From the IMG/VR virus record IMGVR_UViG_3300044648_000427: 64,000 nucleotides of DNA. The stretch is one strand, 5' to 3'. Of this stretch, positions 4,400 to 46,614 are shown piece after piece (position 1 is the stretch's first letter; each line of letters begins with the position of its first letter). Below the pieces are notes generated by a model that had not been told where the DNA came from, searched no databases, and saw nothing but the letters and a program-made list of their open reading frames with translations. This DNA is from a virus. The translations under genes and the position numbers were made by a program.

Positions 4400-4439
4400 C
4401 CTTTTACTTCTCTTTTGTTGAGTATATGTTTTTTCCTTT

Positions 4440-6197
4440 GTGGTTATTCTTACTACTAGTGACGATCAATATATTGAACCTTTAAGAGTTAAAGTAGTAT
4501 TCAACGATCGAAAAGATACAATCACATATTATACTTTTGATTCGTTTGTTTATCCCAATACCATTAACATTATGTATGTTGATGTGAGTTTGGGAATTGG
4601 TCAAACTGGAACTTTCAAAATTGAGATTGAAGATTCAGCAAAGGCTATTGATTATCACGCCTTACTTGCAATGAAAATTTATATTTATGCTGGTAAAACT
4701 CAACAATCTTATACACCTTTAATTGTTGGAGTAATTCGTTCTGTTGAACAAAGTAGAGACGATACAGGTCTTCAAACTTATATTTTAAGTGGATATGGAT
4801 TAGCAATCGTATTTAATGAAACAGTTGTAAACTGGAGAAAAAGTGCCTTTAGACAAAGCCTTGATTCACTCAATCCTTCATTACAGGATATTTCTCACGA
4901 AGCTAATAATCTTGTCCGTCATCTTGTTACCAGTAGAGATGTATTCCCATTGCAGAACAGCGAATCAATTATTGAAAGATATAATCTGAGTGCTGATGCG
5001 ATTGATATTAGGGTAAAAGATTTTCTTTCTACAATTAATGAACAGAATGTTGAATCTTCTCATACAATGAATTTGTTGAGTAATGCCGTAGGTGGAATGT
5101 GGGGAGTGGATAGATTTGGTAGAGTGTTTTATAAATATGCTCAGTTTGAATATTCACCAATTGTAGTTAAAGATACTGTTGAGTCAACTGATCTTGCGGA
5201 TCGTACGTCATATTTTGCTGGGGCATGGAAAAGACTTATAAGTATCAAGAAAGAGGATGGATTTAGTAATAGGCTTTTCGCTAAAACTTCTTCACAGACA
5301 ATTGAAACTTTTATTGAATTAAATTCTCAAGGTTCTACGCCATTACTTGATAAGGCTGCTGCCCAAATGTGGGTTCCTAGTGCTAGCAAATTTACTAACA
5401 TGGGATTTTTGCTCCGTAAAGTAGGTGATCCTAAATCAACTCCAAGAAACATCGTTCAGGGAAGGATTGTTCATGATAACGGAGGCTATCCAACTGGATC
5501 GGAGGTTATAAGTTTTACTATTCCAATTGAAGATATAAAGAGAACACCAACTCCAATTTATCAATTTGATATTAATTTTGCGGGGGTCGATGTTACCGTA
5601 GGGCAAAAATATTGGGTAATACTCTTCCGTAGAGGAAGCAATAACAAAAATTACGTTGAATGGTTACACAATAATGACTTTAGTACTAATACAGAAGCAA
5701 TAAATAGAGTTAGTGCAGTATCAGATCCCAACGGAGATTATTCTTCATGGCCGGGTCTGAGGTGGAATTTACATAATTCCGGCCCCGTATATGCTTTTGC
5801 TACTTTTGATTCTCTTTCTCACTTGGTCTATGCGGAAGATCCTGTAAGCGTTGATAGGTATGGGCCGATTGAAAGCTTTATTGATGTTAGAGGTTTAGAT
5901 GATAACAGAACGATTGACAAATATTTACACACTTATTTACAATTTTCAGCACGTCCTATCATCTTTTACACTATTAATCGTGTTACAATTCCTGATAGTC
6001 TATTTATGCCGGGGCAACTTATCACCATCGTAGATAATTTAGGCGGTATGGAAAGATCAAAAAATATCAGTGCAGAAATTCAAGAAGTTAGATATGAATT
6101 TAATGTTGCTGAAGATGGACTTGGAACAAGGTACTGTGAAATCAGACCATTAGGATATTATGATCACCTGTTTGATTTGGAGGGTGTTTGTAGTTGA
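4440..6197 (+). CDS. Putative baseplate hub/tail-tip protein with internal beta-sandwich insert
   Basis: Directly after the TMP. Beta-rich, with the hub-like C-terminal pattern SVDRYG..E and PGQLITI. Confidence 0.6.
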   Translation: MVILTTSDDQYIEPLRVKVVFNDRKDTITYYTFDSFVYPNTINIMYVDVSLGIGQTGTFKIEIEDSAKAIDYHALLAMKIYIYAGKTQQSYTPLIVGVIRSVEQSRDDTGLQTYILSGYGLAIVFNETVVNWRKSAFRQSLDSLNPSLQDISHEANNLVRHLVTSRDVFPLQNSESIIERYNLSADAIDIRVKDFLSTINEQNVESSHTMNLLSNAVGGMWGVDRFGRVFYKYAQFEYSPIVVKDTVESTDLADRTSYFAGAWKRLISIKKEDGFSNRLFAKTSSQTIETFIELNSQGSTPLLDKAAAQMWVPSASKFTNMGFLLRKVGDPKSTPRNIVQGRIVHDNGGYPTGSEVISFTIPIEDIKRTPTPIYQFDINFAGVDVTVGQKYWVILFRRGSNNKNYVEWLHNNDFSTNTEAINRVSAVSDPNGDYSSWPGLRWNLHNSGPVYAFATFDSLSHLVYAEDPVSVDRYGPIESFIDVRGLDDNRTIDKYLHTYLQFSARPIIFYTINRVTIPDSLFMPGQLITIVDNLGGMERSKNISAEIQEVRYEFNVAEDGLGTRYCEIRPLGYYDHLFDLEGVCS

Positions 6198-6910
6198 AAG
6201 TACATAGTTCAGGTGGAATTAACCATTTCGATGTTGGGTATGAAGCGTTATGGGATAAAAGTGATTATAATAAAATTTCTAAACATTTTAATGAAATTAA
6301 TCAATTAACAAAAGAAATTAAAAATTTAACTATTAATAAATTTATATATCCCAAAGAACATATGATTAATTTTCAGATAGAAGATGAGATTAATTTTATT
6401 AAGCAAAAAAAATCAAGTTTAGTAAATATTTTTGAGGATCAACTTGAAAGAAGTTATAATGATCAAACTACTGTAATTGAACCACATGAAATAAATAAAT
6501 ATATAATTCCATTGAAAGTTAATAAACAAATTGATAGAGTTGTAGCTAGTGGTATGGCAAGACTAGCAGAGTTTTCAGTTGGTGAAAGTACCCAATTCTT
6601 TAATCATTATTCAGCGGGAACAGGAACGACTCCAGTTTATGCATCTGATACTGCACTTGTAGAAGAACTTGTAAGAGTTTCTATCGAACAGCAGGGTTAC
6701 GCAACAGCGTCAGGAGCGGTAATAAAATTTGGGGCGTACTTTCCCCCCGGTGTGCAAACAGCGACGATTACAGAAGCTGGAGTATTTGATCAGATGGTCG
6801 CAGGAGTTATGTTATTTAGGGTCGTTTACCCACTAGAAAAATCTCTGAACCATGTGCAATCTATAACTTTTTTTACATTATCACATGCAATATATATGTC
6901 TTCAATCTAG
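6194..6910 (+). CDS. Tail/baseplate protein with tail-collar-fibre-like domain
   Basis: C-terminal GTGTT..DTAL..E..R...ITEAGVF..G.ML motif recognised from phage tail-fibre N-termini. 4-nt overlap with the upstream gene. Confidence 0.6.
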   Translation: MKVHSSGGINHFDVGYEALWDKSDYNKISKHFNEINQLTKEIKNLTINKFIYPKEHMINFQIEDEINFIKQKKSSLVNIFEDQLERSYNDQTTVIEPHEINKYIIPLKVNKQIDRVVASGMARLAEFSVGESTQFFNHYSAGTGTTPVYASDTALVEELVRVSIEQQGYATASGAVIKFGAYFPPGVQTATITEAGVFDQMVAGVMLFRVVYPLEKSLNHVQSITFFTLSHAIYMSSI

Positions 6911-6917
6911 ACATATA

Positions 6918-7751
6918 TTATATTCCTCTTTTATTTAAATTTTTAATATATGTACAAATATTATTATCTTGTTTATTTATATATTGTAACATCATTTCAC
7001 CTTGGATTTTCTTGGTTACTAAATATGGAATAAAATGTGGAAGTAATGTAACAATATTATCAATTTTTCTTGTTTTTAGATCGTAAATTGGATTCCAATT
7101 ATTATTAGATTTGTTGATTTTTACAATAGATAGAGTTGCTAAAGGTTTTAATAATTCCCTAATTGATTTTACTAAATATGAATTTGTATTGACTAAGAAT
7201 GATAAAATTGGGGTATAAGTATTTCTTCTTCGATCAAACCCAAAACATATACTTCCTTCAGAATCTATAATACCCGAAATAAAACTTTTTTGTGTTTCAG
7301 TTAAGTTTTTTATTTTTATTATATCATTAATATCTAAATAATTATCTTTATTTTTTAATATATTTATACTCTTTCCATTCATTTTTTTACATTCTTGATG
7401 ATTTTTTTCACACTCTATTCCCTTGCACACATTTATAAGATTTTCAATTCTTGATTTTTTTGATATTAAATATGGATTAATAATTTCTGATAATCTAATT
7501 AAATCATTTATATTATATATCTCTATACTATGTCTGGGTTTATGAAGTGAAGATCTAGATCGTTTAGATACATTATAAGTATATTTATAGTTATCCTTAT
7601 TAAGAATATTAATAATATAATTTATAGTTTTTTCAGATGTATTAATAATTGATATACACTTTCTATACCATATTCCTTTATCTCGTCCAATATAAATTGA
7701 TCCATCTCCCTCAATAAACCCAGCTAAATACGCAGCTTCAGTATCTTTCAA
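6918..7751 (-). CDS. Free-standing double-motif LAGLIDADG homing endonuclease
   Basis: YLAGFIEGDGSI and FISGIIDSEGSI motifs. Very AT-rich and antisense to the tail operon. Confidence 0.85.
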   Translation of the reverse strand: MKDTEAAYLAGFIEGDGSIYIGRDKGIWYRKCISIINTSEKTINYIINILNKDNYKYTYNVSKRSRSSLHKPRHSIEIYNINDLIRLSEIINPYLISKKSRIENLINVCKGIECEKNHQECKKMNGKSINILKNKDNYLDINDIIKIKNLTETQKSFISGIIDSEGSICFGFDRRRNTYTPILSFLVNTNSYLVKSIRELLKPLATLSIVKINKSNNNWNPIYDLKTRKIDNIVTLLPHFIPYLVTKKIQGEMMLQYINKQDNNICTYIKNLNKRGI

Positions 7752-8722: not shown

Positions 8723-8760
8723 TAGTTGATTTATTTAAACACTAATTTATAAACGTTGTT

Positions 8761-8892
8761 ATGAGTTTTAAATATTTTCGCCCTGCTATACGAGGTCATG
8801 GCCCAAATTGTAAATGCAGTTTAGATTTTGGTGGGTGCGTTATAAAGAAACTTATTGAAAAACTAGAAAGGTTTGAGGAGCAAAATAAATGA
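8761..8892 (+). CDS. 43-aa peptide resembling the N-terminus of the downstream adhesin (not in ORF track)
   Basis: MSFKYFR..IKKLIEKLERFE versus MSFQDFR..IKALLQRLEKFE; ATGA overlap with 8889. Confidence 0.65.
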   Translation: MSFKYFRPAIRGHGPNCKCSLDFGGCVIKKLIEKLERFEEQNK

Positions 8893-11339: not shown

Positions 11340-11375
11340 TAGTTATTAAATGTTTCTATATAATATCATTTTCTG

Positions 11376-12347
11376 ATGTCTAGTGAGATTCTTGTTTCCC
11401 TTTTAGGTGGAGCTTGGGTCGGAGAGAATAATCTTTCTGCTCCACGTATGAATGCTAAAACCGTTTGGGTTGGAACGGGTGCAGCTTTATCTAATCTTTC
11501 TCCCACTTATCCCGGTCAGATAGCAGTATGTAGTTCAACCGAAAGTGGATTTATTAAAGATTCTGTTTATTATCGTGATACAGATAATGCAGGATGGTTA
11601 TTCCTATCAATGTCTAAGCATACTCATAATGTTGACGATCATTTATCAGGTGGTCTTTATACTGATATAATGTATGATAATCTTATGAATGCTTATCAAT
11701 GGGGTTCATTAAGTGTTACAAAGGAAATGTTTCATAATATTGTAGCTGGTTCGGCAACAATTACCAATGATTTAAGTTCTGCGTCCGGAAAAGTTGTTTT
11801 AGATTCTGGGGCTATTGCTAATGATTATGCACAGAGCGTAGTACCGCCGGGGGCTAAATTATCTTTTGCACGTAAATCTAGGTTATTAGCGAAAGTTGGA
11901 GTTACGTTTGGAGGTAGTGGAGTAACAAATTACATTACAAGAATTGGTGTTGCTGGGGAAGATATTAACGGAGCAAATACTACAAGTAATAAATATGGTA
12001 TTGAAGCTTGTTCTCAAGATTCTCAGGTTAATTGGATGATATTTAGTGCTAATGCAGGAACTAGAACTGGAGGAACAGTAACAAGTTCTCCTGTAGATGC
12101 TGGTTATGATTCAAGTGGTAAAGGTTATAGATTAGATCATACACCGAACCTTGATATAAAATTTTATAATAATGGTGTAAATTGTGGTGCTAATTGTACA
12201 AAAACAAGTAATAATCCAAATTCTGGAAATACAGGAACAGATTATGTATTACGATTAGGAATAAAATCTACTAATACCAATGCGAAGAAGATGGCGTTAT
12301 TCGGTATTAGACTTATAGGAACCATTTCAGATGCCGCTTGGGCATAG
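11376..12347 (+). CDS. Putative tail fibre/virion beta-rich protein
   Basis: Gly/Ser/Thr/Asn-rich, in tail-module context, with a TAGTT-type promoter. Confidence 0.5.
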   Translation: MSSEILVSLLGGAWVGENNLSAPRMNAKTVWVGTGAALSNLSPTYPGQIAVCSSTESGFIKDSVYYRDTDNAGWLFLSMSKHTHNVDDHLSGGLYTDIMYDNLMNAYQWGSLSVTKEMFHNIVAGSATITNDLSSASGKVVLDSGAIANDYAQSVVPPGAKLSFARKSRLLAKVGVTFGGSGVTNYITRIGVAGEDINGANTTSNKYGIEACSQDSQVNWMIFSANAGTRTGGTVTSSPVDAGYDSSGKGYRLDHTPNLDIKFYNNGVNCGANCTKTSNNPNSGNTGTDYVLRLGIKSTNTNAKKMALFGIRLIGTISDAAWA

Positions 12348-12956: not shown

Positions 12957-13268
12957 ATGAATGTTTCCTTACAAATAAGACTTGATAATTCATTACTGAA
13001 AAATATAGTAAAAAATGGGATATTCCCAGATTCCTTAGAGAATGTACTAGCATTACGAGTACATGATTTATTAAGAAAATATACTATTCCCTATAAAGAT
13101 ATTTATAGAAAAGTAACACGCTCACAGGGAGTATTATTCAGTTTATATGAAATAAGTATAACAATTATTGATATTGAATTTGATATAGGTCAGTTAAAAC
13201 TTTTATTCACAGAATGTCTTAATCCATTCGCTCATCAGATTAGAAAGATAAATATGGTAGTTCATTAA
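12957..13268 (+). CDS. Hypothetical protein
   Basis: Open frame in the operon. Confidence 0.5.
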   Translation: MNVSLQIRLDNSLLKNIVKNGIFPDSLENVLALRVHDLLRKYTIPYKDIYRKVTRSQGVLFSLYEISITIIDIEFDIGQLKLLFTECLNPFAHQIRKINMVVH

Positions 13269-13310
13269 TCAATAGTTCATTAAATGTAACAAACGCATGG
13301 ACTCTCATCC

Positions 13311-16300
13311 ATGGTTGTTCTGCCTAATGATATTAGATTCTTTTATTCAGGTGGTACTGATAATCAAAATCCACTTGCAAGTTTAGGTGGCCAAATTTCT
13401 GTTACTCAAATTATTAATGAATCTCAAGAAAACGTCTTCAATAATGTTACATTAATTGAAGCTGATAACGGATTAACAGATTACCGTTGTTTTTACGTAA
13501 AAAATGTAGGTCAAGAATTATGGAGAAATGCGGTTATTTGGCGAGAACAAGGTACACAATCTGGATTTGATAGTATTGGTATTGGGTTAGGAACTTCTAT
13601 AATTGATGGTACTGAACAAATAGTATTAGATAGGTTTACAGCTCCTATAAACGTTAATTTTGCTGGCCCTGATAGTAAGGAAAGTGCTTTACTGCTAGGT
13701 GATCTTGCCCCCGGTTCACATAAAGCAATTTGGGTAAGAAGGATAGTAGAACCTTTAGCAAGAACATTCAAGAACAATACATTTAAATTAAGAGTTGAAT
13801 TAGGAAATCCCGCTGGTAGCGGTGGTGGCGGAGGAACGCCACCGGGAAATCCGCCCGGTCTGCCCGGAACTGGTGGCGGTGGAGGAACTGGAACGGGATG
13901 TCAGACAGGATATCATAAAGTAAATGGTGTGTGTATTCCTGATACAGTACCTCCTATTACTGGAGGTGGAGGAGAAAATATTTTATGGCAATCTACTGCA
14001 TGGTCTAATGGTCATGATAGAACAATTACCTCTCATAATGCTAGAGATCCCGATGATCCTACATTATCATTTGGTGCTGGTGAAAACAGAGAATTAATTA
14101 TTAAAGGTGCATCAGATCCCGGATTTGTTAATCATACAGGTGCCAGAACTCGTATATATGTAGATCAATTTGGTACTACTACTAATCATTATAATGCTTC
14201 ACTAGAAATTCAAAAGTTTTATATTAATTCTTCACTCGATGGGTTATCTCTTAGATTACGTTCACGTCATAATGAAGATGATCCCACAACTAATCGTTTT
14301 GGAGGCTATAATATGTCAGTACATCATACAGAAATTGAAGCTCAACGTGAAAATTATCATAACGATCATACTAGTCTTACACCTTCTACTATATCCCTTC
14401 CTCATGCATTGGTAAATGGAACCGAGTATGGTATAAGATATTCATGCAGAGATACAACAGATGGAAAAGTAGAATTAAAAATGGAATTAAAAGGTGGTGC
14501 ATATGGAACAAGTTATGTTGAAGTAGCTAAAGCATATGATAATAATCCATCATCCTATATGCTTGATAAACAACTTTACCTTAATAATCGTTCGTATTTC
14601 TGGATAAGGACTAATGGAGATGCTCCAGAAGATGTTAGATATGGTTTTGTTGTTTTCAGAGATTTAGACAAAAGTTCTGTTACATCATGCCCTGCTGGGT
14701 ATACACTTAAAAATGGGGTCTGTGTTGCTGATACACTTCCTACTACTCAACCTCCTCCTTCAGGTGGTGGAGGGGCTACAATTGCAGATTATACAGCTAC
14801 GGCAGTTGGTGATACTACTTGTGGTAGTACAGCTCAAACTATTGTTAGTAGAATCGTAGGTAGAAATCCTAATTTCCATATACCTTTAGGTGATTATACA
14901 TATACCAGTTCAACTGCTTGTTGGTTATCCATGATGACTCCTCTAAAATCTAAAATATTTTCTATGAATATTGGAAATCATGATGATGAAGAAGATGAAA
15001 GTAACACGTTACGATCACAATATTTATCTTGGGTTAATTTATCTCAACCATACCATGCTTTTACATTTCGGAATACATTTGTACTTACCCTTTATACTTA
15101 TGCTCCGTTTGGGTTTGGTTCTGGTTCAGCTCAATTTCAATTTGCACAACAGCAATTAGCGGCTGCGAGGGCTAACCCTGCGATTGACTGGATTATTGTT
15201 AATTTCCACAAACCAATTTATACTGCTGCATCTAATCATTCTGGTTATACAGCTTTTCGTGATGTTTATCACCCATTATTCGATCAATATAAAGTAGATT
15301 TATGTTTATCTGGGCACGTACACAATTATCAGCGTACTAAACCACTTAAATATACTGGTACTGGAACTGGTAATAGTATAGCTAACAATCAGACTACAGG
15401 TTATATAAATCTTGTTAATCCGATATTTGTAATTGCCGGGTGTGGAGGAAGAGAAATAAGTTCAATTAGTGACCAACCATCCTATAATGCTGGTCAACGT
15501 GAAGGATATGGTTATGTACTTATGTCATGGTCAAACAATGGTAAAAAGCTTACATGTAGACATTATGATCAAACAGATACTTTACGTGATGAATGGACAA
15601 TGGACAAAACTGCGGTCAGCCAACCCCCACCACCCCCCAGCGGAGGAGGGGGAACAACGCCACCACCAACTACAGGAGGCCAAATAGATAGTAATGGAAT
15701 TAAATGGTTACTAGCAACAGGTCAACAATCTGTAATTCCTAATTCAAGATATGATAAAAGTGGAGATGAAAATGATTTTCGTTGGTCAGAAGTTTATCCT
15801 AATTTGAGAGATAATGGATTTGAAGTTACAGCATATGGTATATTTGAGACTACTAATGGTGATGCTCATTTTGCTCTCAAACATTGGGGAGGAAATCATA
15901 GTGGAGATTGTCAATATAGCGAAGGAGGGAGTTGTTGCTGTTGGTATGACACGGGTATACGTGAAAATGGAGCGGTACAATTACAAATTGAGCGACCTCA
16001 CCCCTCAAATGATGACTTTAGTGCTACTACATTTATGAGTAATATTGGAGTAGGTATGTCTAATAATACTATTGGCCTTAAATGGATAATATATCCAATT
16101 CAAGAAGGTGGAGATGTTGATCGTGGTGGAGTAAAGTTGAAAATGTATGTAGATACTAGTGGATTTTCAGCAAGTAAACCACAAAATCAATGGAGATTAG
16201 TGTATGATATTACGGACACTGGACAAATATTAGGTGATTATCCAGCTCCAGAAGAACAGGAAATTGAAGTTCGTAATTCAGATACTAATGATACTGTTAT

Positions 16301-19681: not shown

Positions 19682-19776
19682 AAGATCTGAGCTTAGATTT
19701 TGGTATTTATGACAACTAAGTTTACCTTATTTCAGTTTCAATAGTTGTTTTGTTTGATTTATTTAAAAGTTTTCAT

Positions 19777-19965
19777 ATGAAGTTACAGAAAGGAGCGATT
19801 CTATCAAAGAATAATGCAAGTTACATTACATGTGTGAAATGCGGCAGAGAGTTAAATATCTTTAATGAATACGATTATTATGATCTAAATGGATCATTCA
19901 TTAAAGAATGCTGCGGGAAAATTCACACACTTACTCAACATACTTATATCTTCCAATATAACTAA
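19777..19965 (+). CDS. Small Zn-finger protein
   Basis: CVKC...CCGKIH. ATG 19777 is preferred over TTG 19750 from promoter spacing. Confidence 0.55.
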   Translation: MKLQKGAILSKNNASYITCVKCGRELNIFNEYDYYDLNGSFIKECCGKIHTLTQHTYIFQYN

Positions 19966-20011
19966 GAGGAATCTTAGTTCTCTTTTTTATCTTTCCTTAT
20001 AATTTCTCCAT

Positions 20012-26118: not shown

Positions 26119-26168
26119 CAACAATTTTTTTAATAACTCTCATTAATATTAATAATAAGTTTTCTTTT

Positions 26169-26600
26169 ATGAAACTAGCTATAATAATTGTCATTTTAAG
26201 TTTTCTTATAGGTGGTGCTTATATAGGACACGCCAATTATGTTCTTGAAAAATCACATATCCCAATAGATGAAGAAAAATATATATATTATCATATTCAA
26301 ACTGAGTATATTAAATTTATGATATTCTTACCTGTTGCCATATTTTATTTTATGATTGCTATTGTTATTTTTTGTATTCCTCATAATCCTCTTCCTTATG
26401 TAATATTTATAGGATTTACGGGAGCGTTCCTAGCAATAACAGCAATAAATATGTTTTTAGGTAATCCTTATCCACAGTTAAACATGACAACTAAATATGG
26501 ACATTACATTGATTTTCCTCTAGTAAAAACTTTTCAGACTATATCTATGATTGTAACTTTATATGTATATTACAAAAAGTTCTGTTCTAAAGTTGTATAG
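26169..26600 (+). CDS. Multi-pass membrane protein
   Basis: About 4 hydrophobic segments. Confidence 0.6.
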   Translation: MKLAIIIVILSFLIGGAYIGHANYVLEKSHIPIDEEKYIYYHIQTEYIKFMIFLPVAIFYFMIAIVIFCIPHNPLPYVIFIGFTGAFLAITAINMFLGNPYPQLNMTTKYGHYIDFPLVKTFQTISMIVTLYVYYKKFCSKVV

Positions 26601-26640
26601 TTCTCAATAAGAAATAATTAATATCATTTTTCACACATAA

Positions 26641-29723: not shown

Positions 29724-29793
29724 ATTTTAAGAATTGATTTTCTTGTTAATAAAAACTATAAGTTTATATTCGTGTTGATCCATTATATAATTA

Positions 29794-30707: not shown

Positions 30708-32597
30708 TTGGATTTATGGGATATTCGACAGCAAAAAGCTGAAGAACGAAAAAAGAGACTTAGGGAACTTGCCGATAAAGTTAAATCGGATCGAATCACT
30801 TATATAACCAACGTAATACTTAAAGAGGTTCGCAAAGAACACAGACTTGTAATGCAGATATTATATGCATTATTTTCTATTTATACACCAAATCCAATTA
30901 ATTTAGCGATTAACGCCCCAACGGGTGAAGGTAAAACTTATGGATTGAAAAATGTAGCTAAACATTTTCCGGGAGATGACGTAGATCATCTCGGTGGAAT
31001 GTCGGAAAAAGCCCTATTTCACCGCAGGGGCGAAGTGGTGGTAAAAGAGGACGAAGATGAATATGCACCAATTGAAAAATATACTGATGAGATACATATA
31101 GAACTTGAAGAAATTGCCGAAGAAATGAAAGAATCTGATGATAAAGCTGGATTACGTGCAAAGCGTAGAGAATTACAAGAAAAGCTTGAACGTTATGAAG
31201 CTGAAGCAATAAAGCGAATTGATTTACGACAAAAAGCACTTGTTTTTCAAGATACTCCTGATGCAAAATTACTTGAAACCATTATGCCTTTACTTTCTCA
31301 TGATCAACCTAGAGTATTTTACGAATTTGTAAGCAAAAATAATAATGGAATTCAAACTACTCAAAATATGATTGAAGGATGGCCAAGTGTTATCTATTGT
31401 CAGGCAATTGATATAAGTGCAAGAGAAAGGTGGCCGGAGTTATTACGGCGATTTATAATTTGTAATCCAGAGATGACAAAAGAAAAATATGCTGAAGCAA
31501 TTGATCAGATTTACAAAAGCTCTTATACAGATAATAAATATGAACTTGAAGTTGTAACGAATGAGGAAAAACAAACCGTAAAAGGAATCATATTAGATAT
31601 TATTGAAACTCTTAAAGATCATTTTTCAGATAATCGCAGAAACTCCGTAATAATGCCCTTCAGAGATTCAGTTCAATCAAGTTTCAAAACTGATGGAGCT
31701 TTTGATGTTGGAGTGGCAATGAAAACACATGATTTATTAGTATTACTTTCCGTAGTAAACCTTAAGGAAAGACCGTATTTATTAACCAAAGAGGAAAAAC
31801 GAATTCCTTTTTGTACTTTTAAAGATTTAGAGGATGCATTATATATCAATGAATTTGTTTTTGGTGGACTTAGACAATATGTTCTACAATGGTATATTAG
31901 TGTATTTTATTATGAGTGGAATAGAAAAAATATGGACAATGATCTCGATGCGGAACAACGGTCAAGTAATTCAGCTCCAGTTATGGAATCGAAACCTGTA
32001 GCAAGAATAGGGGAATTAGTAAGACGAACCCAAGAAGTGTATGGTGGGGAAAAAGTTGCAGAAAGCGAGATAAAGAAAAAATATCTTAATCCACTCATTA
32101 ATCATGGTTATATCGACGAATTACAATCAGAGGTAAAAAGAGAAAAAGTTTATTATCCAACATCTCATGAAATAGTTACTCGATATGAGGTTAAGGATAA
32201 TTCCTTAAAATTAATCAAAAAACTTCAAGTACGTGACCCTTCCAAATATCCAAGTAAACGTTATTTAGCGGCTCAAATAATCGAAGATATGAAAGTAGAA
32301 CCGGGATGCAGAATTTGTGATGTTGATGGTCAAGATATTAGTGTTTCCGATTTGATTGAAAAATATTACACTTCTCCAGAAACACACTTTATGGAATTTA
32401 CTGATCTAAAACCAGAAGATATAGAAAAAATCACCAGTACTAATACACCTGTTACACAGAGATTAACTAATTGGACAAAAGAGAAAAAAGGTTTACAAGA
32501 AATTGTTTGTGAAAATTGTGGAAAAAGCTTTTTAGAGCAAGAGATGAAAGATCATAAAGAATTTGATAATTGTAAACCACGGCAGAAATTATTTTAA
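30708..32597 (+). CDS. AAA+ P-loop ATPase, probable replicative helicase-like protein
   Basis: Walker A APTGEGKT, degenerate Walker B LVFQD, Arg finger ELLRRF, C-terminal wHTH-like region and CENC..H..C finger. Confidence 0.65.
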   Translation: MDLWDIRQQKAEERKKRLRELADKVKSDRITYITNVILKEVRKEHRLVMQILYALFSIYTPNPINLAINAPTGEGKTYGLKNVAKHFPGDDVDHLGGMSEKALFHRRGEVVVKEDEDEYAPIEKYTDEIHIELEEIAEEMKESDDKAGLRAKRRELQEKLERYEAEAIKRIDLRQKALVFQDTPDAKLLETIMPLLSHDQPRVFYEFVSKNNNGIQTTQNMIEGWPSVIYCQAIDISARERWPELLRRFIICNPEMTKEKYAEAIDQIYKSSYTDNKYELEVVTNEEKQTVKGIILDIIETLKDHFSDNRRNSVIMPFRDSVQSSFKTDGAFDVGVAMKTHDLLVLLSVVNLKERPYLLTKEEKRIPFCTFKDLEDALYINEFVFGGLRQYVLQWYISVFYYEWNRKNMDNDLDAEQRSSNSAPVMESKPVARIGELVRRTQEVYGGEKVAESEIKKKYLNPLINHGYIDELQSEVKREKVYYPTSHEIVTRYEVKDNSLKLIKKLQVRDPSKYPSKRYLAAQIIEDMKVEPGCRICDVDGQDISVSDLIEKYYTSPETHFMEFTDLKPEDIEKITSTNTPVTQRLTNWTKEKKGLQEIVCENCGKSFLEQEMKDHKEFDNCKPRQKLF

Positions 32598-32630
32598 CAT
32601 TTATATTACCGACTGATCAATATAATACTG

Positions 32631-37905: not shown

Positions 37906-38184
37906 GTGGATGACAGTAAATACGTTGAAGCTTTAAAAAAGATAAAACAGGTTAAAGATGAAAATAAAAAGAAAGTAGAGAAGATTCGCAATGTAAATTT
38001 AGAGGAAAAGAAAAAAATAATCAACGCAATTGTTAATATAGAGATAGTGGAAAAGCTTATTAAGGAGGGAACCATATTCGATCCTAACCATAATGGCGGT
38101 GAATTGGCCTTCGTATACCCTGACGGAAATAGACTTGGCCTTATAGACGCTATTAGGGCTTTACGTTCATTATTAAACCAGTAG
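37906..38184 (+). CDS. Hypothetical protein
   Basis: Own TATA box. Confidence 0.5.
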   Translation: MDDSKYVEALKKIKQVKDENKKKVEKIRNVNLEEKKKIINAIVNIEIVEKLIKEGTIFDPNHNGGELAFVYPDGNRLGLIDAIRALRSLLNQ

Positions 38185-38206
38185 TTTTTTTAATCACCGA
38201 TTTCCA

Positions 38207-38776
38207 TTGTATGAATATTTGAGTAAACCGATCACCCTCAAGAAGCTAAACTATTACCGCTCTTTGGCTTTAGTGAAACGTAAAAAGAACAAGACTACAG
38301 CGGCAAATACTCCTAAAAAGAAGAAGAAAAAAACCCTGCGAGATAGAATGAACGCAGCTTCCCTTGGATTGTTCAATCGCAAAGATAAAGCTGGCAATAG
38401 AATATGTAGAAATATATTCTGTTCAAGATCCCCAAAAGATGGTTTCTATTGTTCAGTGACTTGTAGGAAAAAATTTTTTACCTATTATGAAAACAATTAT
38501 ATGTGGGCGAATGTCAGATTAAAAATATTCAAGCGTGATAGATACACATGCAAGATTTGTAAGACATTTTACCCAATCTGCGAGCTAGAATGTGATCACA
38601 TTAAACCAATTGACTTGATAAAGGAAAACGGTTATAAAGTCCTTAATCTTAGGGCATTTGATGAATATATTTATAGCGAAAAGAATTTAAGAACGTTATG
38701 TAAAGAATGTCATAAAGATGTTACAAAGGAATTTATGGCCGATAAAAGGCTTAAACTCAAGACCCTAAAATCTTGA
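38207..38776 (+). CDS. HNH endonuclease with Zn fingers
   Basis: W..VR..IFKRD.YTC.IC, LECDHI, NLRTLCKECH. In-frame TTG 38219 fits the TAGTT promoter spacing. Confidence 0.85.
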   Translation: MYEYLSKPITLKKLNYYRSLALVKRKKNKTTAANTPKKKKKKTLRDRMNAASLGLFNRKDKAGNRICRNIFCSRSPKDGFYCSVTCRKKFFTYYENNYMWANVRLKIFKRDRYTCKICKTFYPICELECDHIKPIDLIKENGYKVLNLRAFDEYIYSEKNLRTLCKECHKDVTKEFMADKRLKLKTLKS

Positions 38777-39469: not shown

Positions 39470-42400
39470 ATGATTAAGGTTAAAAAACGTAATGGCAGTA
39501 TTGTTGATTTTAATAAAGATAAAATCGTGAGTGCTGTTAACAAAGCTTTGAAAGCAGCTAAAATTGAAGATAGTAAAATTGCTAAAGATGTAGCAATAAG
39601 CATTTATGAAAGCATCGATAAAGAACAGGTTTCAATTGATGAGATTCATGGAATGGTAGAAACCGAACTTATGGAAAAAGGGTTTAGCGATGCAGCAAGA
39701 TCCTACATACTTTACAGGTACAAGAAAAAGGAAAAATTTATTAAGGAGAGGCAAGAAAAAAGAAAATTACTCAATATTGAAGGACAATTAGATCCTGTTT
39801 CAGAGAAATTTTCATTAAACTCGTTGCGTGTACTCGAATCACGTTATTTGATTAAGGATGAAAATCTTAAGGTAATTGAAACTCCAACAGCGTTATTTGA
39901 ACGTATTGCTACCCATGTTGGATGTGCGAATATAATGTATGATGAGAAAGTGTTTGATAGGGAAGCTAAACATGAACCAAATACAGGTACAATAAGTGGG
40001 TTACTTACATGGAATAATGATTATTATATAAGAACTCCTGAAGAATATGAAAAAAGTGATTTACATATCGGTAAATATAGACTTAATGGATATAATTTAA
40101 AACAATTAGAACAACTTTATGGTAAATTATCTAATGAAAATAAGATGAAAGTATCTTTCGATGAAGTTTTAAGAATGGTTGCAGAAGGTGAATTTGACAA
40201 ATATGAAAAAACAATCAAATCTTATTTCGACCTTATGGTAAGCCAAAAATTTATGCCTAACACCCCAACGATCGCCAATGCAGGTAATAAACTTGGTCAA
40301 CTTTCCGCATGTTTCGTAATTGACATGAACGATAACATTGAATCTATAATGGATACAGCAAAAGATATGGCAATTATATTCAAATCCGGCGGTGGAGTAG
40401 GGATTAATTACGCTAAACTCCGTGAAGAGGGAGCAACGATTAGCACCACAAGCGGAACTTCTTCAGGGCCTTTAAGTTTTATGAACATAATCAATACAGT
40501 TACTGATACAGTTAAACAAGGTGGTAAAAGGCGTGGGGCAAATATGGGTAGTATGAATTCATCTCATCCTGATATATTAAAATTTATTCATGCCAAAGAA
40601 ACTCCGGGGATATTAGAAAACTTTAATGTATCTGTTGGTATTGATGGTAAATTTTGGGAGTGTTATAAAGAGAATAAGCCATATGAGTTGATTTCTCCAA
40701 GTAGCGGAAAGGTAAAAGCTACAGTTAATCCTCGTGATTTTATGAAAGAAATTTCTAGATCTGCATGGAATAGCAGCGAACCCGGCGTATTATTGTTTGA
40801 TAATGCAAACAAATATAACGTTATGAAGGGATTGAAAGGTGAATTAAATTCGACCAACCCTTGCGGAGAACAATATTTATATCCATATGAAAGTTGCATA
40901 GCGAAGAATACAAGAATATTAACTAAAGATGGATATAAATTTATCCAAGATATAAAACCCGGAGAAGAAATTGCAATAAATAAAAATGGTTATGCTTCAT
41001 TCTCTACGGTTAATACAATTATTAATAATGGAATAAAAAATATTTATGAAATTACTACTCATGAAGGATACACTGTTAAAGCAACAAACAATCATAAATT
41101 TTTAACCAAATCGGGGGAATGGGTTAGATTAGATGAACTCGCCGAAGAAACAGAATTAACAATCTCAGCTAAAGAACCTTATTGTTCAATCCAAACAAAT
41201 ACTGATAACTACAAAGAAGATGAAATGATAGGTTGGATTCATGGTGATGGATGGTTTACCGATAAAGTAGTAGGAATCAGTTTCAATGGTAAAGATGGTG
41301 ATTTTGATGTTAAACGACGTCTACTCCCGGTATTCCACAAAGTATTTAAAACTGAACATATTAGACCAATGTATGATAGTCCAGATAATTTCCAGCTTCA
41401 AACCGAGTCAAGCGGAGCAAAACAGATTTTAGTTGGTTTAGGTGTTAAATTCGGTAGAGCTGGACAAAGGAGGATTCCTGATTATATATGGGAAACTGAT
41501 TCAGTAAGACAAATAGCATTTTTAAGAGGATTATTTAGTGCAGATGGTTCCATTCAAAATAGATCTAATACTGCTGTACAACTTGCAAGCACTTCTAAGG
41601 AATTCTTACTTGATGTTCAATTATTATTACTACGATTTGGATTACATTCAACAATTTATACTACAGAGTTTAAAACAACAAAACGTAATCCTCAACATAA
41701 ATTGGCTTTAACCCAAGAAAATGCACGTAGATTTATGGATAGTATAGGATTTTTATCCGAACGAAAGAATTCTATGTTTAATAGAAATCCTCCAAAATAT
41801 TACAACTCCGATAAAAAGACTGTTAGAATAAAAAGTATTGTAGAATGTGGTAAAGAAGAGGTTTATGATATTGAAGTTGCTAATGAACATCAATTCATAG
41901 CCAATGGATTTGTAGTTCATAATTGTAATCTCGGATCTATAAATTTGACGAAATTCGTCAAAAATAAGCTATTTGACTTCGATTCTTTCGGTCAAGTGAT
42001 TGATATTTGTGTTGATTTTCTGGATTCCGTAATTGATGTAAATAAATATCCGGTAAATGAAATTGACAAGGAATCATGGAAAACACGAAGAATTGGTTTG
42101 GGAGTAATGGGATTAGGTGATTTACTCTTTATGCTTGAAATACCATACAATTCTGTAGAATCTTACGCTCTTCAAGAACAAATAGCTCAATTTCTTTCTT
42201 ATAGATCAATATCAAGGAGTATAAAATTAGCTAAACTGAGGGGTTCTTTTCCATATTTTGAACAGACTGAATGTAAACATGGAAAAGTTGATATTGCTGG
42301 TGTATGGGAAGGTGGAATTACTTCAAAAGCTCCAGTTGCTGATTGGCAAGAAGTTAAAGATGATATTCAGAAATATGGTTTAAGAAATGTAAATGTTGAT

Positions 42401-43177
42401 ATGGTAGCCCCAACAGGTTCAATATCTATGATTGCTGATTGTTCAAGTGGGATTGAACCAGTATTCGCTTTGGCGTTTGAGAAAAAGGTTGCGGTAGGAA
42501 ACTTTTATTATGTAAATCCATATTTGGAACTTTATCTTAAAAAGCATAATATTTTTTATGATGAAGAATTACTTAAAACTATTTCTAAATCAGGTTCATG
42601 TCAAAATGTAGATTTACCTGAAGAGGTTAAACGTATTTTTGTAACTTCAATGGATATTCATGGACTTGATCATGTAGTAGCTCAAGCAGTTTGGCAACGA
42701 TGGATGACAAATGCAGTTTCAAAAACTTGTAATTTGCCTAATAATGTAACTCCTGAAGATATTGAAAATATCTATTTATTTGCTCATGAAATGGGATTGA
42801 AGGGAATCACTATTTACCGTGATGGTAGTAGAAATACACAAGTTCTTTATACTGAAAATATGGAGAATAAACAATTAAATGCTACAGAATATTCAAGAAA
42901 TCTTTATCAACAAAAGATGATTAAAGGATTAGACGGAATGATTATGAAGGCACAAATGATAAATAAAGAAGTAACTCCTACAGTTGAAGAATTTTTTACA
43001 CAAAATAAGGAATTCAATCCAAACAATCATTCTGAATATGGTGAATCTGAACTAGAACCTTTACCCCGTTACAAAACTAGTAACATAGCAGATTGTCCTA
43101 AATGTGGTAAACGAATGGTTAAATTTGATGGATGCAAAAAATGTCCAGATCCTTCATGCGGGGAATCACTTTGTTAG
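39470..43177 (+). CDS. nrdJ: Class II (adenosylcobalamin-dependent) ribonucleotide reductase with ATP-cone, intein and C-terminal Zn ribbon
   Basis: VKKRNG ATP cone, FMPNTPT, SACF, GGGVG, RRGANM, TNPCGE, CNLGSINL, APTG, KGITIYRDGSR. No beta subunit nearby. Confidence 0.93.
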   Translation: MIKVKKRNGSIVDFNKDKIVSAVNKALKAAKIEDSKIAKDVAISIYESIDKEQVSIDEIHGMVETELMEKGFSDAARSYILYRYKKKEKFIKERQEKRKLLNIEGQLDPVSEKFSLNSLRVLESRYLIKDENLKVIETPTALFERIATHVGCANIMYDEKVFDREAKHEPNTGTISGLLTWNNDYYIRTPEEYEKSDLHIGKYRLNGYNLKQLEQLYGKLSNENKMKVSFDEVLRMVAEGEFDKYEKTIKSYFDLMVSQKFMPNTPTIANAGNKLGQLSACFVIDMNDNIESIMDTAKDMAIIFKSGGGVGINYAKLREEGATISTTSGTSSGPLSFMNIINTVTDTVKQGGKRRGANMGSMNSSHPDILKFIHAKETPGILENFNVSVGIDGKFWECYKENKPYELISPSSGKVKATVNPRDFMKEISRSAWNSSEPGVLLFDNANKYNVMKGLKGELNSTNPCGEQYLYPYESCIAKNTRILTKDGYKFIQDIKPGEEIAINKNGYASFSTVNTIINNGIKNIYEITTHEGYTVKATNNHKFLTKSGEWVRLDELAEETELTISAKEPYCSIQTNTDNYKEDEMIGWIHGDGWFTDKVVGISFNGKDGDFDVKRRLLPVFHKVFKTEHIRPMYDSPDNFQLQTESSGAKQILVGLGVKFGRAGQRRIPDYIWETDSVRQIAFLRGLFSADGSIQNRSNTAVQLASTSKEFLLDVQLLLLRFGLHSTIYTTEFKTTKRNPQHKLALTQENARRFMDSIGFLSERKNSMFNRNPPKYYNSDKKTVRIKSIVECGKEEVYDIEVANEHQFIANGFVVHNCNLGSINLTKFVKNKLFDFDSFGQVIDICVDFLDSVIDVNKYPVNEIDKESWKTRRIGLGVMGLGDLLFMLEIPYNSVESYALQEQIAQFLSYRSISRSIKLAKLRGSFPYFEQTECKHGKVDIAGVWEGGITSKAPVADWQEVKDDIQKYGLRNVNVDMVAPTGSISMIADCSSGIEPVFALAFEKKVAVGNFYYVNPYLELYLKKHNIFYDEELLKTISKSGSCQNVDLPEEVKRIFVTSMDIHGLDHVVAQAVWQRWMTNAVSKTCNLPNNVTPEDIENIYLFAHEMGLKGITIYRDGSRNTQVLYTENMENKQLNATEYSRNLYQQKMIKGLDGMIMKAQMINKEVTPTVEEFFTQNKEFNPNNHSEYGESELEPLPRYKTSNIADCPKCGKRMVKFDGCKKCPDPSCGESLC
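40895..41923 (+). mobile_element. 343-aa intein with LAGLIDADG homing endonuclease in nrdJ
   Basis: Begins CIAKNT and ends VVHN before Cys+1. Block B T.NHKF; motifs IGWIHGDG and FLRGLFSADG. Removal restores PYES-CNLGSINL. Confidence 0.93.
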
Positions 43178-43493: not shown

Positions 43494-43531
43494 CAAAAAC
43501 ATTTATATATTTATTTATTCTATATATTATA

Positions 43532-43940: not shown

Positions 43941-43969
43941 AGTTTAAATATCCTTATGATTAATATAAA

Positions 43970-44039
43970 GTAGCGTCGTAAGGGGCCTCCGTAAAGTTGA
44001 ACTACGCCGGGAGGAAGAAATTCCTCCTATATACTTTTT
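43970..44039 (+). ncRNA. Candidate small RNA 2
   Basis: AAAGTTTAAATA promoter at 43939-43950. GC-rich body, GGAGGAA-GAAA-TTCCTCC hairpin at 44010-44027, then a T-tract. Confidence 0.5.
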
Positions 44040-44096
44040 AAGTTGTTTAAACATCCTTTATAAAGGTTTTTAAATTTACAACTGCAATTACCATTT

Positions 44097-45236
44097 ATGT
44101 TTATAACTGATCCACATTTACCAGTAAACGAGCGTATTAAACAGCTCGATATAAGGGAATCAAAGATTCTTGACGATATAAAAGGTTTGGATTTATCTCT
44201 CAGAGACACCCAAAATCGTATACAAGAAATACTTCATGACTGGTCATTAGTAATCGAAGAACAACATGTTTTAGGTTCATACATGAAACCTGTTAACACA
44301 ATTTGTAGTAGAATAATACAAATTCTGAAAGAAAATAATTTAGACGAATTAACCAAATATACATACAATTTACCTGATAGATTCAAACAATTAAAGTATC
44401 AACATGCAGGATTATTTGGAGCCGCATATAAGAACACACCATTCAAATCTGCGGATGATGTAGTTCAAAGTGAACTTGATAATTACCGAGAATTAGAAAA
44501 GGAAGAATACGTTAAGAATATGCTTTCTTCAGAACGTAAATTCCCTGTTTTTCTGCCCGCTAACACACCGCTTGACGGAATGACAAAAGATGAAATAAGA
44601 AGACGATATGAATTGATTAAGGAAGCAAAATCTAGATTACGAGAAGAAATGAGTAACCTTGAAGAATCAATAAAACTCAACAATATTGCTCTAGTTGAAG
44701 AAAAGCTTGAAGAGCATATAAGTACGGATAAACCAGAAGCAAGAGAAACGGAATTCTCTCAAGCTATAGGAAGTACAATATTTGAACTAAATAAACTTGT
44801 TTCAACACTTGAACAACTAAAAGAGAAAGTATATCAATTTCCTCCTAATGATGATGATGCTGCTCCATACACAATAGGATTTAACGAATTTATGAGTGAA
44901 TTAATTAAAGGAATAAATAGATTCATACAACCCATTAAAGACGAAAAATGGACTAACTCTTGGAGTAATTGGTTCCAAACAGCTAATCTTGAATATGATC
45001 ACGGCAAACATGCAGCAGGAAAGATGTCAGCGGCTCCTTCGCATAAAGGAATAATGCGTCCTATGACTAGAGAGATTGTAGGTGATTCTAGAGATAAAGT
45101 ATTTAATCAAGCATTGGAATTCGTAAAAATGGTTAGCATGTTTGACCAACTAACTGATTATCACGAGAAATACATACGCCCAAGAATTCTCGATCGCAAG
45201 ATTCGTCTGAGCCCAAAATTGAGTGAACAAGCTTAA
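44097..45236 (+). CDS. Hypothetical helical/coiled-coil protein
   Basis: 379-aa ORF with TATA box and T-rich terminator. Confidence 0.7.
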   Translation: MFITDPHLPVNERIKQLDIRESKILDDIKGLDLSLRDTQNRIQEILHDWSLVIEEQHVLGSYMKPVNTICSRIIQILKENNLDELTKYTYNLPDRFKQLKYQHAGLFGAAYKNTPFKSADDVVQSELDNYRELEKEEYVKNMLSSERKFPVFLPANTPLDGMTKDEIRRRYELIKEAKSRLREEMSNLEESIKLNNIALVEEKLEEHISTDKPEARETEFSQAIGSTIFELNKLVSTLEQLKEKVYQFPPNDDDAAPYTIGFNEFMSELIKGINRFIQPIKDEKWTNSWSNWFQTANLEYDHGKHAAGKMSAAPSHKGIMRPMTREIVGDSRDKVFNQALEFVKMVSMFDQLTDYHEKYIRPRILDRKIRLSPKLSEQA

Positions 45237-45293
45237 CTTAACTTTTTTTTAACCAAAAACTTTATATATTTTGATCATAGCAACCTTTATATA

Positions 45294-45476
45294 TTGACAG
45301 AAAAGTCTTATAAAATAATAAAGTATTGGTCATCGAATAATCAACCGAACAACTGTACGATTAACATACCTAAACAGTTTGTTAAAGAACATAATTTATT
45401 GAATAGCCAATTTCTAATGGTAACTTCAATTGAAAATGGTATTTTAATTCAGCCGCTAAAGGAGGTTAAAAAATGA
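45294..45476 (+). CDS. AbrB/SpoVT-like DNA-binding protein
   Basis: TINIPK.F...........ENGILIQPL. Confidence 0.65.
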   Translation: MTEKSYKIIKYWSSNNQPNNCTINIPKQFVKEHNLLNSQFLMVTSIENGILIQPLKEVKK

Positions 45477-45652
45477 GTAAAAGTGAGTACAGAATAAGTC
45501 GTTGGTGGCATACAAATAGCAGAAAAGAATCTATCACTGTTTATATTCCAAGAAAATTTGCAGATGCTCATAAAATGATGGAAAATCCCTATGTACAGAT
45601 AATAAATAGAGAAGACGGCGTACTAATTAAACCTTTGGAACCTACAAATTGA
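45473..45652 (+). CDS. AbrB/SpoVT-like DNA-binding protein, tandem paralog (not in ORF track)
   Basis: ITVYIPRKFA...EDGVLIKPL; SD GGAGG. Confidence 0.65.
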   Translation: MSKSEYRISRWWHTNSRKESITVYIPRKFADAHKMMENPYVQIINREDGVLIKPLEPTN

Positions 45653-46242
45653 AAGTCAACAAAGTTACAACAGTAGACATAAATGACGTTAAACTCGATC
45701 CTGCAAATCCGAACGTAATGGATCAGGATGAAATGGATAGATTACGTAAAAGTATGGAGACTTATGGATTCCTTACCCCGCTTGTTCTTGATCAAAACAA
45801 TATGCTTGTAGATGGTGAACATAGATTTACTGTTTTCAAAGAATATAATATTAAGGAAATTCCATGTATAAAACTAAAATTTAATTCAGAAGCGGAAAGG
45901 CGGACTTTACGTCAGGTTATGAATAAACTTTCTGGTACTCACGATATTGAAAAAGACCTCAAAGAGCTTGAAATAATCATGGAAAATGATGCTCAAATGC
46001 TTGAAGAGCTTACAGGAATCACCGAAAAAGAAATAGAAGATATGCGAGCGGAATTATCGGATGAGCCGCATTTCCAAATGCCGAAAAGCGATTTTGAGCC
46101 CGAAGAACAAGAGGAAAAACATGTATTACATATTCCTGTTTCCGATGGACTATTAAGTAAAATAAAGTTTATAATGAAGAAAAGAAATATAGATGATTAT
46201 GAGGAATTACTAGAATGGTTAACATCTCAATCAGAGGTTTAA
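45649..46242 (+). CDS. ParB/Srx-like nuclease domain protein
   Basis: NPN.M...L..S...YGF..P.V......VDGEHR. Confidence 0.85.
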   Translation: MKVNKVTTVDINDVKLDPANPNVMDQDEMDRLRKSMETYGFLTPLVLDQNNMLVDGEHRFTVFKEYNIKEIPCIKLKFNSEAERRTLRQVMNKLSGTHDIEKDLKELEIIMENDAQMLEELTGITEKEIEDMRAELSDEPHFQMPKSDFEPEEQEEKHVLHIPVSDGLLSKIKFIMKKRNIDDYEELLEWLTSQSEV

Positions 46243-46557
46243 TCTCTTTATTCTATCTACTCTAAATTCCTCACATGAATTATAATTAAATGAAATATAT
46301 TCTAAAATTTGAATAATAATTTTACAATATAATCGTAAATTTTCGCCCTTATTTAACTTACCTTTAAGGTATTTTCTTATGACGCTTGGAAACGTTGTTC
46401 GGTAATATTTTTTCAGGTCTATTTCAGGATCAAGGTAACTGGAATCGATATATGATGAGAATTTTTTTGTGAACGCTACTGGATTACCATGGTGATCTAG
46501 AATAAGTATGTCTAATTCTTCCATTCTATTCAATACTTCAGGAGCTACCACTTGCAC
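46231..46557 (-). CDS. Hypothetical protein
   Basis: TAGTT element 34 nt upstream. Confidence 0.5.
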   Translation of the reverse strand: MQVVAPEVLNRMEELDILILDHHGNPVAFTKKFSSYIDSSYLDPEIDLKKYYRTTFPSVIRKYLKGKLNKGENLRLYCKIIIQILEYISFNYNSCEEFRVDRIKRLNL

Positions 46558-46614
46558 AAGTAGAATAGAAAGTTAGAGTTTATGTAAACTACCAGAAGAG
46601 TTAAATACTTTTAC

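Follow-up and report, generated by a model that had tools for sequence, protein, structure and literature searches.

A TA[G/C]TT element in the BRE position before virion genes of a putative soil archaeal virus: a candidate late promoter class

What distinguishes the promoters of virion genes from those of all other genes in an uncultivated archaeal virus? The question is raised by the IMG/VR record IMGVR_UViG_3300044648_000427, of which we analysed a 64-kb stretch of DNA, referred to here as the window. In this DNA and in that of its relatives, the pentamer TA[G/C]TT (the box) recurs at a nearly constant distance before the start codons of genes encoding virion proteins, at the place where the canonical promoters of the same virus have their B recognition element (BRE), the contact site of transcription factor B (TFB). 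We state with high confidence that this cis-element exists and that it is associated with virion genes. Judged from its spacing and surroundings, the box is quite probably a promoter element in the BRE position, whereas the proposal that a dedicated, probably viral, factor uses it to set late timing is evenly poised. Altogether, the sequence inclines us, with some confidence, to assign TA[G/C]TT to a second class of promoters as a functional core element, one that a virus-specified protein would read and that would serve the late virion genes.

Association of the box with virion genes

The initial annotation had placed TAGTT upstream of nine start codons and the variants TACTT and TAACT upstream of two more, taking them as marks of structural genes. 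On recomputation, all nine TAGTT coordinates and both variant positions proved to be exact (Table 1). The list itself needs amending: two of the nine sites, those before 38219 and 46557, are doubtful, and a site at 26598, before 26641, had been missed.

The association was scored in DNA that is independent of the motif definition. Two contigs, L024 and L111, were reached via a 2110-aa homologue of the truncated first open reading frame (ORF) of the window, and they carry structural DNA that in relatives lies upstream of the window. In L024, a relative of 70% identity, 8 of the 12 new transcription units possess TA[G/C]TT at -43..-34 (binomial P=9e-10), and 4 of the 12 possess it in the exact range of the initial annotation, -38..-34 (P=4e-5). 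The reverse-complement control yields 0, and dinucleotide shuffles give a mean of 0.67 with a maximum of 5 in 2000. Among the boxed units are those of the tail tube (PF18906), of a Neck1/tail-completion protein (phrog_5, E=1e-14) and of the 2110-aa tape-measure-like protein. Among the units that lack the box, three have a TATA-type box instead (a NUMOD3 homing endonuclease and two small genes), and the fourth has neither element. In L111, the box is present in two of five further units; a 122-aa gene and an HNH/endonuclease VII-like gene have a canonical TATA box, and a hexapeptide-transferase gene has an A/T-rich stretch only. Within the structural modules, the canonical promoters belong to NUMOD3/HNH endonucleases and other inserted small genes. 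In L001, an early-gene control beyond the window end, the box occurs in 1 of 12 units.

A similar partition is seen inside the window, where 8 of the 13 transcription units in 4.4-26.7 kb have TA[G/C]TT at -43..-34, compared to 2 of the 40 units elsewhere (Fisher 5e-5); the reverse complement, scored as a control, gives 0 and 2. The structural genes that the box marks are those of the tail tube, Neck1, tape-measure-like, lectin, PKD and Mtd_N-like fibre proteins. The pentamer TAGTT itself is not over-represented in the window (201 copies versus 212 in shuffles). Position-aware motif discovery, made on an independent gene set with the longest starts, recovered only five of the sites at -38..-34, where 1.1 would be expected (uncorrected p=0.006), and the word ranks about 158th among the 61,200 k-mer/position tests.

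The box is kept before orthologous genes at 29-94% protein identity, with the flanking DNA diverged. Homologues of the 323-aa protein encoded at 11376-12347 share 49-94% identity, or 29-35% for those in JGI metagenomes, and they lie on contigs in synteny with the window; exact-DNA searches of viral and metagenome contigs, and single-protein searches of the viral ones, had given no match. When the region upstream of this gene was aligned for five lineages (A1), the sole invariant block was TAGTTA..AAAT, and the flanking columns were unconserved. TAGTT precedes the gene in 8 of 8 lineages, including three deep relatives, down to 29% identity. One relative, L019, lacks TAGTT at this gene and has a Shine-Dalgarno site instead, so that the gene is operon-internal there. 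Orthologues of the gene at 13311 share TA[G/C]TTCAYT in five lineages (window, L012, L003, L009 and L007), those of 4440 share TACTTCT at -35 in three (window, L004:3978 and L024:16374), and those of 20012 share TAGTTCTCTT in three (window, L012:8732 and L009:9936). At orthologues of the 8761 site, the box reads TAGTT/TACTT (L003:6631) or TAGTC (L009:206). The box of 19777 is kept at L012:8492, and that of 19681 is found at L012:8396 (-37) and in L009 (-40, start corrected). In the last case (L009:9560-9940, minus strand), the database start TTG 9666 makes the 516-aa orthologue of the 497-aa protein too long; the conserved sequence MTDDQFGV... begins at a downstream ATG, and TAGTT lies at -40 from it.

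Anatomy and sites of the two promoter classes

Outside the window, 26 sites define the extended motif TA[G/C]TT-[C/A]-W-[C/T]-W-W-N-W, with no information at -10..-1. Across 36 dereplicated sites, the positions +6, +8, +9 and +11 after the box T are 89-100% A/T, C is common at +5 and +7, and +5..+8 matches the TATA consensus within one mismatch at only two sites. The weak TATA-like cores reported by the initial annotation are consistent with this picture, in that only a degenerate A/T box follows TAGTT. In the same 36 sites, no TATA-like box lies at a fixed distance (23-30 nt) 5' of the motif. In AT-rich lineages, the box begins 34-39 nt ahead of the start codon, and in distant GC-richer relatives 41-48 nt ahead of it.

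The canonical class was recovered by a positional k-mer analysis of 90 upstream regions, which found TTTAT at -32..-28 (19 versus 3.3 expected, p=2e-9) in addition to AGGAG at ~-17..-12. Expectation-maximization (EM) gave aaAAcgTTTATATTACCaACT as its consensus. Sixteen first genes have a box with at most one mismatch to TTTATATA, which starts mostly at -29 to -32 (range -29 to -37), and none of these 16 promoters has TA[G/C]TT at -43..-34. The division into two promoter classes made by the initial annotation, one with an A-rich BRE and TTTATAT and the other with TA[G/C]TT, is supported.

Shine-Dalgarno-like motifs are absent from all 41 TA[G/C]TT genes and from the 16 canonical first genes, and are present in 19 of the 37 operon-internal genes. 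Leaderless transcripts are thus very likely for first genes in both classes, so that the distance to the ATG approximates that to the transcription start. As the canonical TATA box starts at about -31, TA[G/C]TT at -34..-39 fills the BRE slot, as the initial annotation had also placed it. Qureshi and Jackson, quoted in PMC11065993, described a purine-rich BRE directly 5' of TATA, with a preference for G at -6 and for A at -3. The slot here is not purine-rich and holds TA[G/C]TT, while the canonical class has A-rich BREs. At divergent gene pairs with a 38-46-nt spacer, the TATA region is flanked by the box towards the virion gene and by an A-rich BRE towards its partner, as expected of an orientation-setting, BRE-like element. 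The pair 16460/16507 of L111 has one TATA box in common, and the window pair 8722/8761, with its 38-nt spacer, has two TATA-like boxes. A reading of the box as a terminator was rejected, as a T-run follows it at some sites only.

Table 1. Positions of TA[G/C]TT sites and of canonical (early-type) promoters; unprefixed coordinates refer to the window
Feature	Position	Strand	Context
TACTT box (TACTTCTCTTTT)	4405..4416	+	35 nt before GTG 4440; heads operon of 585-aa and 238-aa genes
TAGTT box	8723..8734	+	38 nt before ATG 8761 (42-aa ORF)
TAGTTATTAAAT box	11340..11351	+	36 nt before ATG 11376; heads operon of 323-aa Mtd_N-like fibre protein and three more genes
TAGTTCATTAA, two in tandem	13258..13284	+	proximal copy 13273, 38 nt before ATG 13311 (1626-aa Metallophos appendage protein)
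TAGTTGTCATAA box	19707..19718	-	37 nt before ATG 19681 (497-aa carbohydrate-binding-like protein)
TAGTT box	19742..19753	+	35 nt before ATG 19777 (62-aa Cys-rich ORF); back-to-back with 19718 box
TAGTTCTCTTTT box	19975..19986	+	37 nt before ATG 20012; top score of position weight matrix (PWM) in window
TAACT variant, candidate member	26134..26145	+	35 nt before ATG 26169 (143-aa membrane protein, transmembrane-rich)
TAGTTCTCAATA, candidate	26598..26609	+	43 nt before ATG 26641 (60-aa membrane protein); PWM score 11.7
TAGTTTTTATTA box	29747..29758	-	35 nt before ATG 29723 (101-aa and 57-aa genes); outside virion block
TAGTT, probably not a member	38182..38193	+	37 nt before TTG 38219, within HNH endonuclease ORF 38207-38776
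TAGTTTACATAA, doubtful	46580..46591	-	34 nt before GTG 46557 (108-aa ORF); ORF failed coding-potential filter
Canonical example, with extended consensus	32594..32621	+	A-rich BRE, TTTATATT and ACCGACTGA; TATA starts 31 nt before helicase ATG 32631
Extended-consensus promoter	53136-53170	-	
Extended-consensus promoter	57597-57630	-	
Extended-consensus promoter	58493-58525	-	
Extended-consensus promoter	58781-58815	-	
Extended-consensus promoter	60187-60220	-	
Extended-consensus promoter	61338-61370	-	
Extended-consensus promoter, relative	L024:7480-7551		
Extended-consensus promoter, relative	L001:2321-2380	-	
Microsatellite promoter	63182-63215	-	
Microsatellite promoter	L001:4310-4349		
Microsatellite promoter	L001:5680-5708		
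Microsatellite promoter	L001:8990-9026		

Several sites have features of their own, and the starts at 8761, 19777, 38219 and 46557 had been picked generously. The 42-aa ORF behind the first TAGTT box (MSFKYFRP...; 8761-8891) duplicates, in diverged form, the N-terminus of the 816-aa Laminin_G_3 lectin (MSFQDFRK...), whose gene follows 3' of it at 8889, is preceded by a Shine-Dalgarno site and joins the ORF in a TAAATG stop-start overlap; as TAGTT at 8723 precedes the 42-aa ORF, the promoter would drive this duplicate remnant first. The tandem TAGTTCATTAA copies (13258-13287) have a 15-nt period, and in L012 (87% identity) the distal copy has decayed to TAATACATTAA. The start at 19777 is an internal ATG. 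The operon from 20012 encodes a 225-aa PKD protein, a 258-aa protein and a 1549-aa Metallophos/PKD protein. The TAG of the 26598 site doubles as the stop codon of 26169-26600, and that of 38182 is the stop codon of the ORF 37906-38184; the TTG at 38219 is the second of its frame, with an earlier in-frame TTG at 38207. A TAGTT at 49148 (before 49173) was rejected as a member, as it overlaps the canonical-type box CTTAAATA. The 323-aa protein was linked to Mtd_N by an Atlas search; its AlphaFold model, built from nine aligned sequences, has a confidence score (pLDDT) of 43.

An extended consensus, aaAAcgTTTATAT(T/A)ACCNACT(G/A)A, is common to the canonical, early-type promoters and might serve this class as an operator or as a promoter-proximal element. 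The idea that its ACCNACTRA part, 3' of the early TATA, is an inverted TA[G/C]TT found no support: its reverse complement is TYAGTNGGT, and TAGTT occurs in only 2 of ~10 copies. At several early-type promoters, a (CATA)n/(ACAT)n microsatellite, e.g. CATACATACATACATAC, separates the TATA box from the start codon. Homing-type endonuclease genes (HNH, NUMOD3 and endonuclease VII-like) are found within or beside the virion modules, at 38207-38776 in the window, L024:3260-4318 and L111:16926-17666. The NUMOD3 and endonuclease VII-like genes have canonical TATA promoters of their own, and the HNH gene of the window has no clear one.

Reading factor, host and rival explanations

The window has 32% G+C, is densely coded and contains no tRNA genes. 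Its proteins with a family include the Laminin_G_3 lectin, giants with PKD and calcineurin-type phosphoesterase domains, a helicase, an intein-bearing ribonucleotide reductase, a dUTPase, endonuclease VII and HNH/LAGLIDADG endonucleases. The ribonucleotide reductase gene (39470-43177) is split by an intein with a LAGLIDADG endonuclease, and its Pfam matches comprise the reductase barrel, ATP-cone, Intein_splicing and LAGLIDADG_3. Most of the small proteins of the window and its flanks have no family, and many are either zinc ribbons or likewise lack a family. An Atlas search found neighbours of the 497-aa protein (ATG 19681) in Nitrososphaerota. A large soil virus whose hosts would be ammonia-oxidising archaea agrees with these neighbours and with the Nitrososphaeraceae-like promoter geometry.

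Candidate host genomes, all of AT-rich soil Nitrososphaeraceae, were reached by the archaeal amoA forward primer; a host-genome search with the ribonucleotide reductase as bait gave no match. Five genomes (G001-G005, behind L025, L028, L036, L060 and L066) have 8-20 TFIIB cyclin-repeat matches each, corresponding to ~4-10 TFB paralogues. Among 481 transcription units of three Nitrososphaeraceae genomes, TATA occurs 62 times at -34..-27 versus 19 times at a control offset, which indicates that leaderless transcripts are widespread in the candidate hosts. TA[G/C]TT at -43..-34 was found 14 times in these units against 16.5 expected, in genomes that may not be those of the true host. As the box class is at background in the host lineage, a virus-specified reader is favoured over a borrowed host class. 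The initial annotation had envisaged an alternative TFB or a viral activator as this reader; no TFIIB or TBP family match was found among ~150 proteins (~105 of the window and 46 of its flanks, ~90 kb).

In the mechanism that we propose, the element would occupy the BRE slot directly 5' of an A/T-rich box, degenerate in sequence, which stands in for a consensus TATA. It would head nearly all virion units, namely those of the tail tube, the neck, the tape-measure-like protein, the lectin/PKD/phosphoesterase fibres and the small membrane proteins, with the small, DNA-metabolism and inserted homing-endonuclease genes left on the strong canonical promoter with its A-rich BRE and TTTATAT. The virion promoters, weak in TATA, would be poorly used by the standard TBP/TFB of the host. 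A virus-specified protein, itself a product of canonical-promoter genes, would read TA[G/C]TT and recruit or replace TFB, and the expression of the virion genes would be delayed. A narrower form of this mechanism, which we put forward tentatively, is a late switch resembling a sigma factor, in which a viral protein would read the non-purine TA[G/C]TT in the BRE slot and move the host RNA polymerase to the virion promoters. The switch protein might be either a factor that remodels TFB or one that resembles TFB or TBP in diverged form. In that reading, the late switch would have been kept across lineages whose fibre proteins are ~30% identical, in tailed viruses of soil ammonia-oxidising archaea.

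Four other explanations were weighed against this proposal. If a host TFB paralogue read the box as its BRE, the virus would borrow a host promoter class and need no factor of its own, with the paralogue perhaps induced or favoured late in infection. The ~4-10 TFB genes per soil Nitrososphaeraceae genome, the gene subsets driven by TFB paralogues, such as Sulfolobus TFB2 (bioRxiv 10.64898/2026.09.06.749720), and the lack of a viral TFB or TBP among the ~150 proteins would all suit this explanation. Nevertheless, we consider it unlikely, for the box count in the 481 host-lineage units does not exceed expectation where TATA is clear by the same method, a comparison that a paralogue with few targets would escape and that is drawn with host identity unproven. 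Another account dispenses with a dedicated activator: the box could belong to a conserved weak promoter for low or balanced virion expression, or be bound as an operator by a repressor that acts early and is titrated out afterwards, e.g. by genome replication. The weak TATA cores and the low information of the motif (~9 bits) fit this account, as does the fact that the known archaeal viral regulators are mostly repressors acting near BRE/TATA, e.g. SvtR and F55 (PMC5569661), and the early-repressor variant is compatible with all the tests made. A weak promoter, however, has no need of an invariant 5-mer, yet TA[G/C]TT is fixed at 29-35% fibre identity with its neighbours free to vary, and the account as a whole seems rather improbable to us.

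Transcription might otherwise start at TA[G/C]TT itself from an upstream TATA, the box then being the 5' end of a ~35-nt leader with a role at the RNA level. T plus purine is the typical archaeal initiator dinucleotide, A/T-rich DNA lies 5' of some sites, and the offsets of -41..-48 in the distant relatives would be in keeping with a leader. The sites, however, lack a fixed TATA-like box 23-30 nt upstream and any information at -10..-1; their genes lack the Shine-Dalgarno sites that half of the operon-internal genes have; and the tight 34-39-nt spacing in AT-rich lineages equals the BRE position of canonical leaderless promoters. Such a leader is thus very improbable. Finally, chance and composition in AT-rich intergenic DNA, combined with starts chosen to fit, could have produced the pattern. 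TAGTT is indeed unenriched overall, the in-window statistics are weak, EM misses the motif, and the starts 38219 and 46557 had been liberally chosen; this explanation is nonetheless refuted by the enrichment in L024 with its empty reverse-complement control, by the box in all eight lineages at the 323-aa gene and by the partition of the window.

Several observations weigh against a second promoter class of late genes with a viral reader. Promoter function and lateness are inferred from geometry and gene content. The window statistics are weak and do not prove the motif by themselves: de novo EM on 35 window promoters without canonical TATA missed TA[G/C]TT and yielded a Shine-Dalgarno motif and a BRE-like word. 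The motif carries ~9 bits, and in a scan of the window equal-scoring PWM matches appeared inside coding regions, so that sequence alone cannot define site membership; the PWM scan was rejected as a membership criterion for this reason. In L007, the orthologue of the 497-aa gene has its box at -53 or -77, and in the distant GC-richer relatives, the box at -41..-48 is followed by bases that are not A/T-rich; short leaders are a possibility for these deep offsets. Moreover, no candidate for the reading factor surfaced in the ~90 kb examined, the negative result in hosts possibly comes from the wrong genomes, as the identity of the host is unproven, and the virion genes scored were those of the tail, neck, tape-measure-like, fibre and small membrane proteins, short of the capsid, portal and terminase genes.

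Place among known viral promoter classes

The nearest functional analogies to the box are found in the middle and late promoters of phage T4 and in the late motifs known from large DNA viruses of eukaryotes. In T4, the middle promoters have a MotA box at -30 in place of the -35 element. The T4 late promoters, TATAAATA, are read by gp55/gp33 together with the sliding clamp (T4 late transcription is reviewed in PMC2988020). As in T4, a short virus-specific box would set virion or later genes apart under promoters of their own; its consensus is distinct from the early and host-type promoters, and it is associated with virion genes. Similar to the MotA case, the upstream recognition element would be swapped and the downstream element would stay host-like, and homing endonucleases and small inserted genes retain other promoters in both. 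In contrast to T4, with its sigma-70 machinery, the machinery here would be archaeal TBP/TFB/RNA polymerase, and the viral factor is a postulated one. The nucleocytoplasmic large DNA viruses and poxviruses have late promoters with TAAAT-type late elements. These resemble the present case in that a short A/T-rich motif of the late class is kept across a lineage before structural genes, and differ in that these viruses have their own RNA polymerase and factors. Late motifs of such viruses are the subject of PMC5294985.

Activators of the TFB-RF1, Ptr2 and EarA type have their sites upstream of the BRE. TFB-RF1 and Ptr2 act at archaeal promoters with weak BRE/TATA (PMC5569661), and EarA, in a title cited by PMC11065993, is a further activator of such promoters. 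Like those promoters, the weak core elements of the TA[G/C]TT class would need help in recruiting TBP/TFB; unlike them, the element conserved here occupies the BRE slot, with no conservation farther upstream. The promoter subsets of TFB paralogues are alike in that a gene subset would be driven via the slot of a general factor and not from a distal activator site, and in that the candidate hosts have many TFB paralogues. The Sulfolobus TFB2 promoters have a similar BRE and TATA with a different spacing (bioRxiv 10.64898/2026.09.06.749720), and the same preprint cites the TFB/TBP families of Halobacterium. Compared to TFB2, the sequence in the BRE position itself differs here, and host promoters of the TA[G/C]TT type were not found in the three genomes.

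Among archaeal viruses, SIRV2 and others have conserved regulatory sequences of early genes around strong promoters (PMC11065993), and SIRV1/2 have a GTC motif 3' of the TATA box (PMC5569661). They are comparable in that a virus-wide consensus of the BRE/TATA region marks a temporal gene class, and the canonical class of the window (aaAAcgTTTATATTACCNACTRA) fits this early consensus (PMC11065993). The early consensus combines a strong purine-rich BRE with a perfect TATA and belongs to early or anti-defence genes, whereas in the TA[G/C]TT class the BRE is replaced, the TATA is degenerate and the genes are virion genes, which sets this class apart from the early type.

Archaeal viruses are not known to encode an RNA polymerase and have host-like BRE/TATA promoters, and their known regulators are mostly repressors (PMC5569661); the timing of their virion genes is largely unknown (PMC5569661; bioRxiv 10.64898/2026.09.13.751334). 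Our literature search found no description of a virion-gene-specific element in the BRE position of an archaeal virus, and the box looks like the first sequence-defined virion or late promoter class in such a virus. The 5-12 bp element offers a concrete handle for mutation, as a bait for the reading factor and in tests against single TFB paralogues. In addition, the box is of practical use for distinguishing virion and early modules in the genomes of uncultivated thaumarchaeal viruses, in which most proteins have no family. If our interpretation is true, archaeal viruses, otherwise thought to be wholly reliant on host-like BRE/TATA promoters and the RNA polymerase of the host, would here provide their first example of a conserved, sequence-defined promoter class confined to virion genes.

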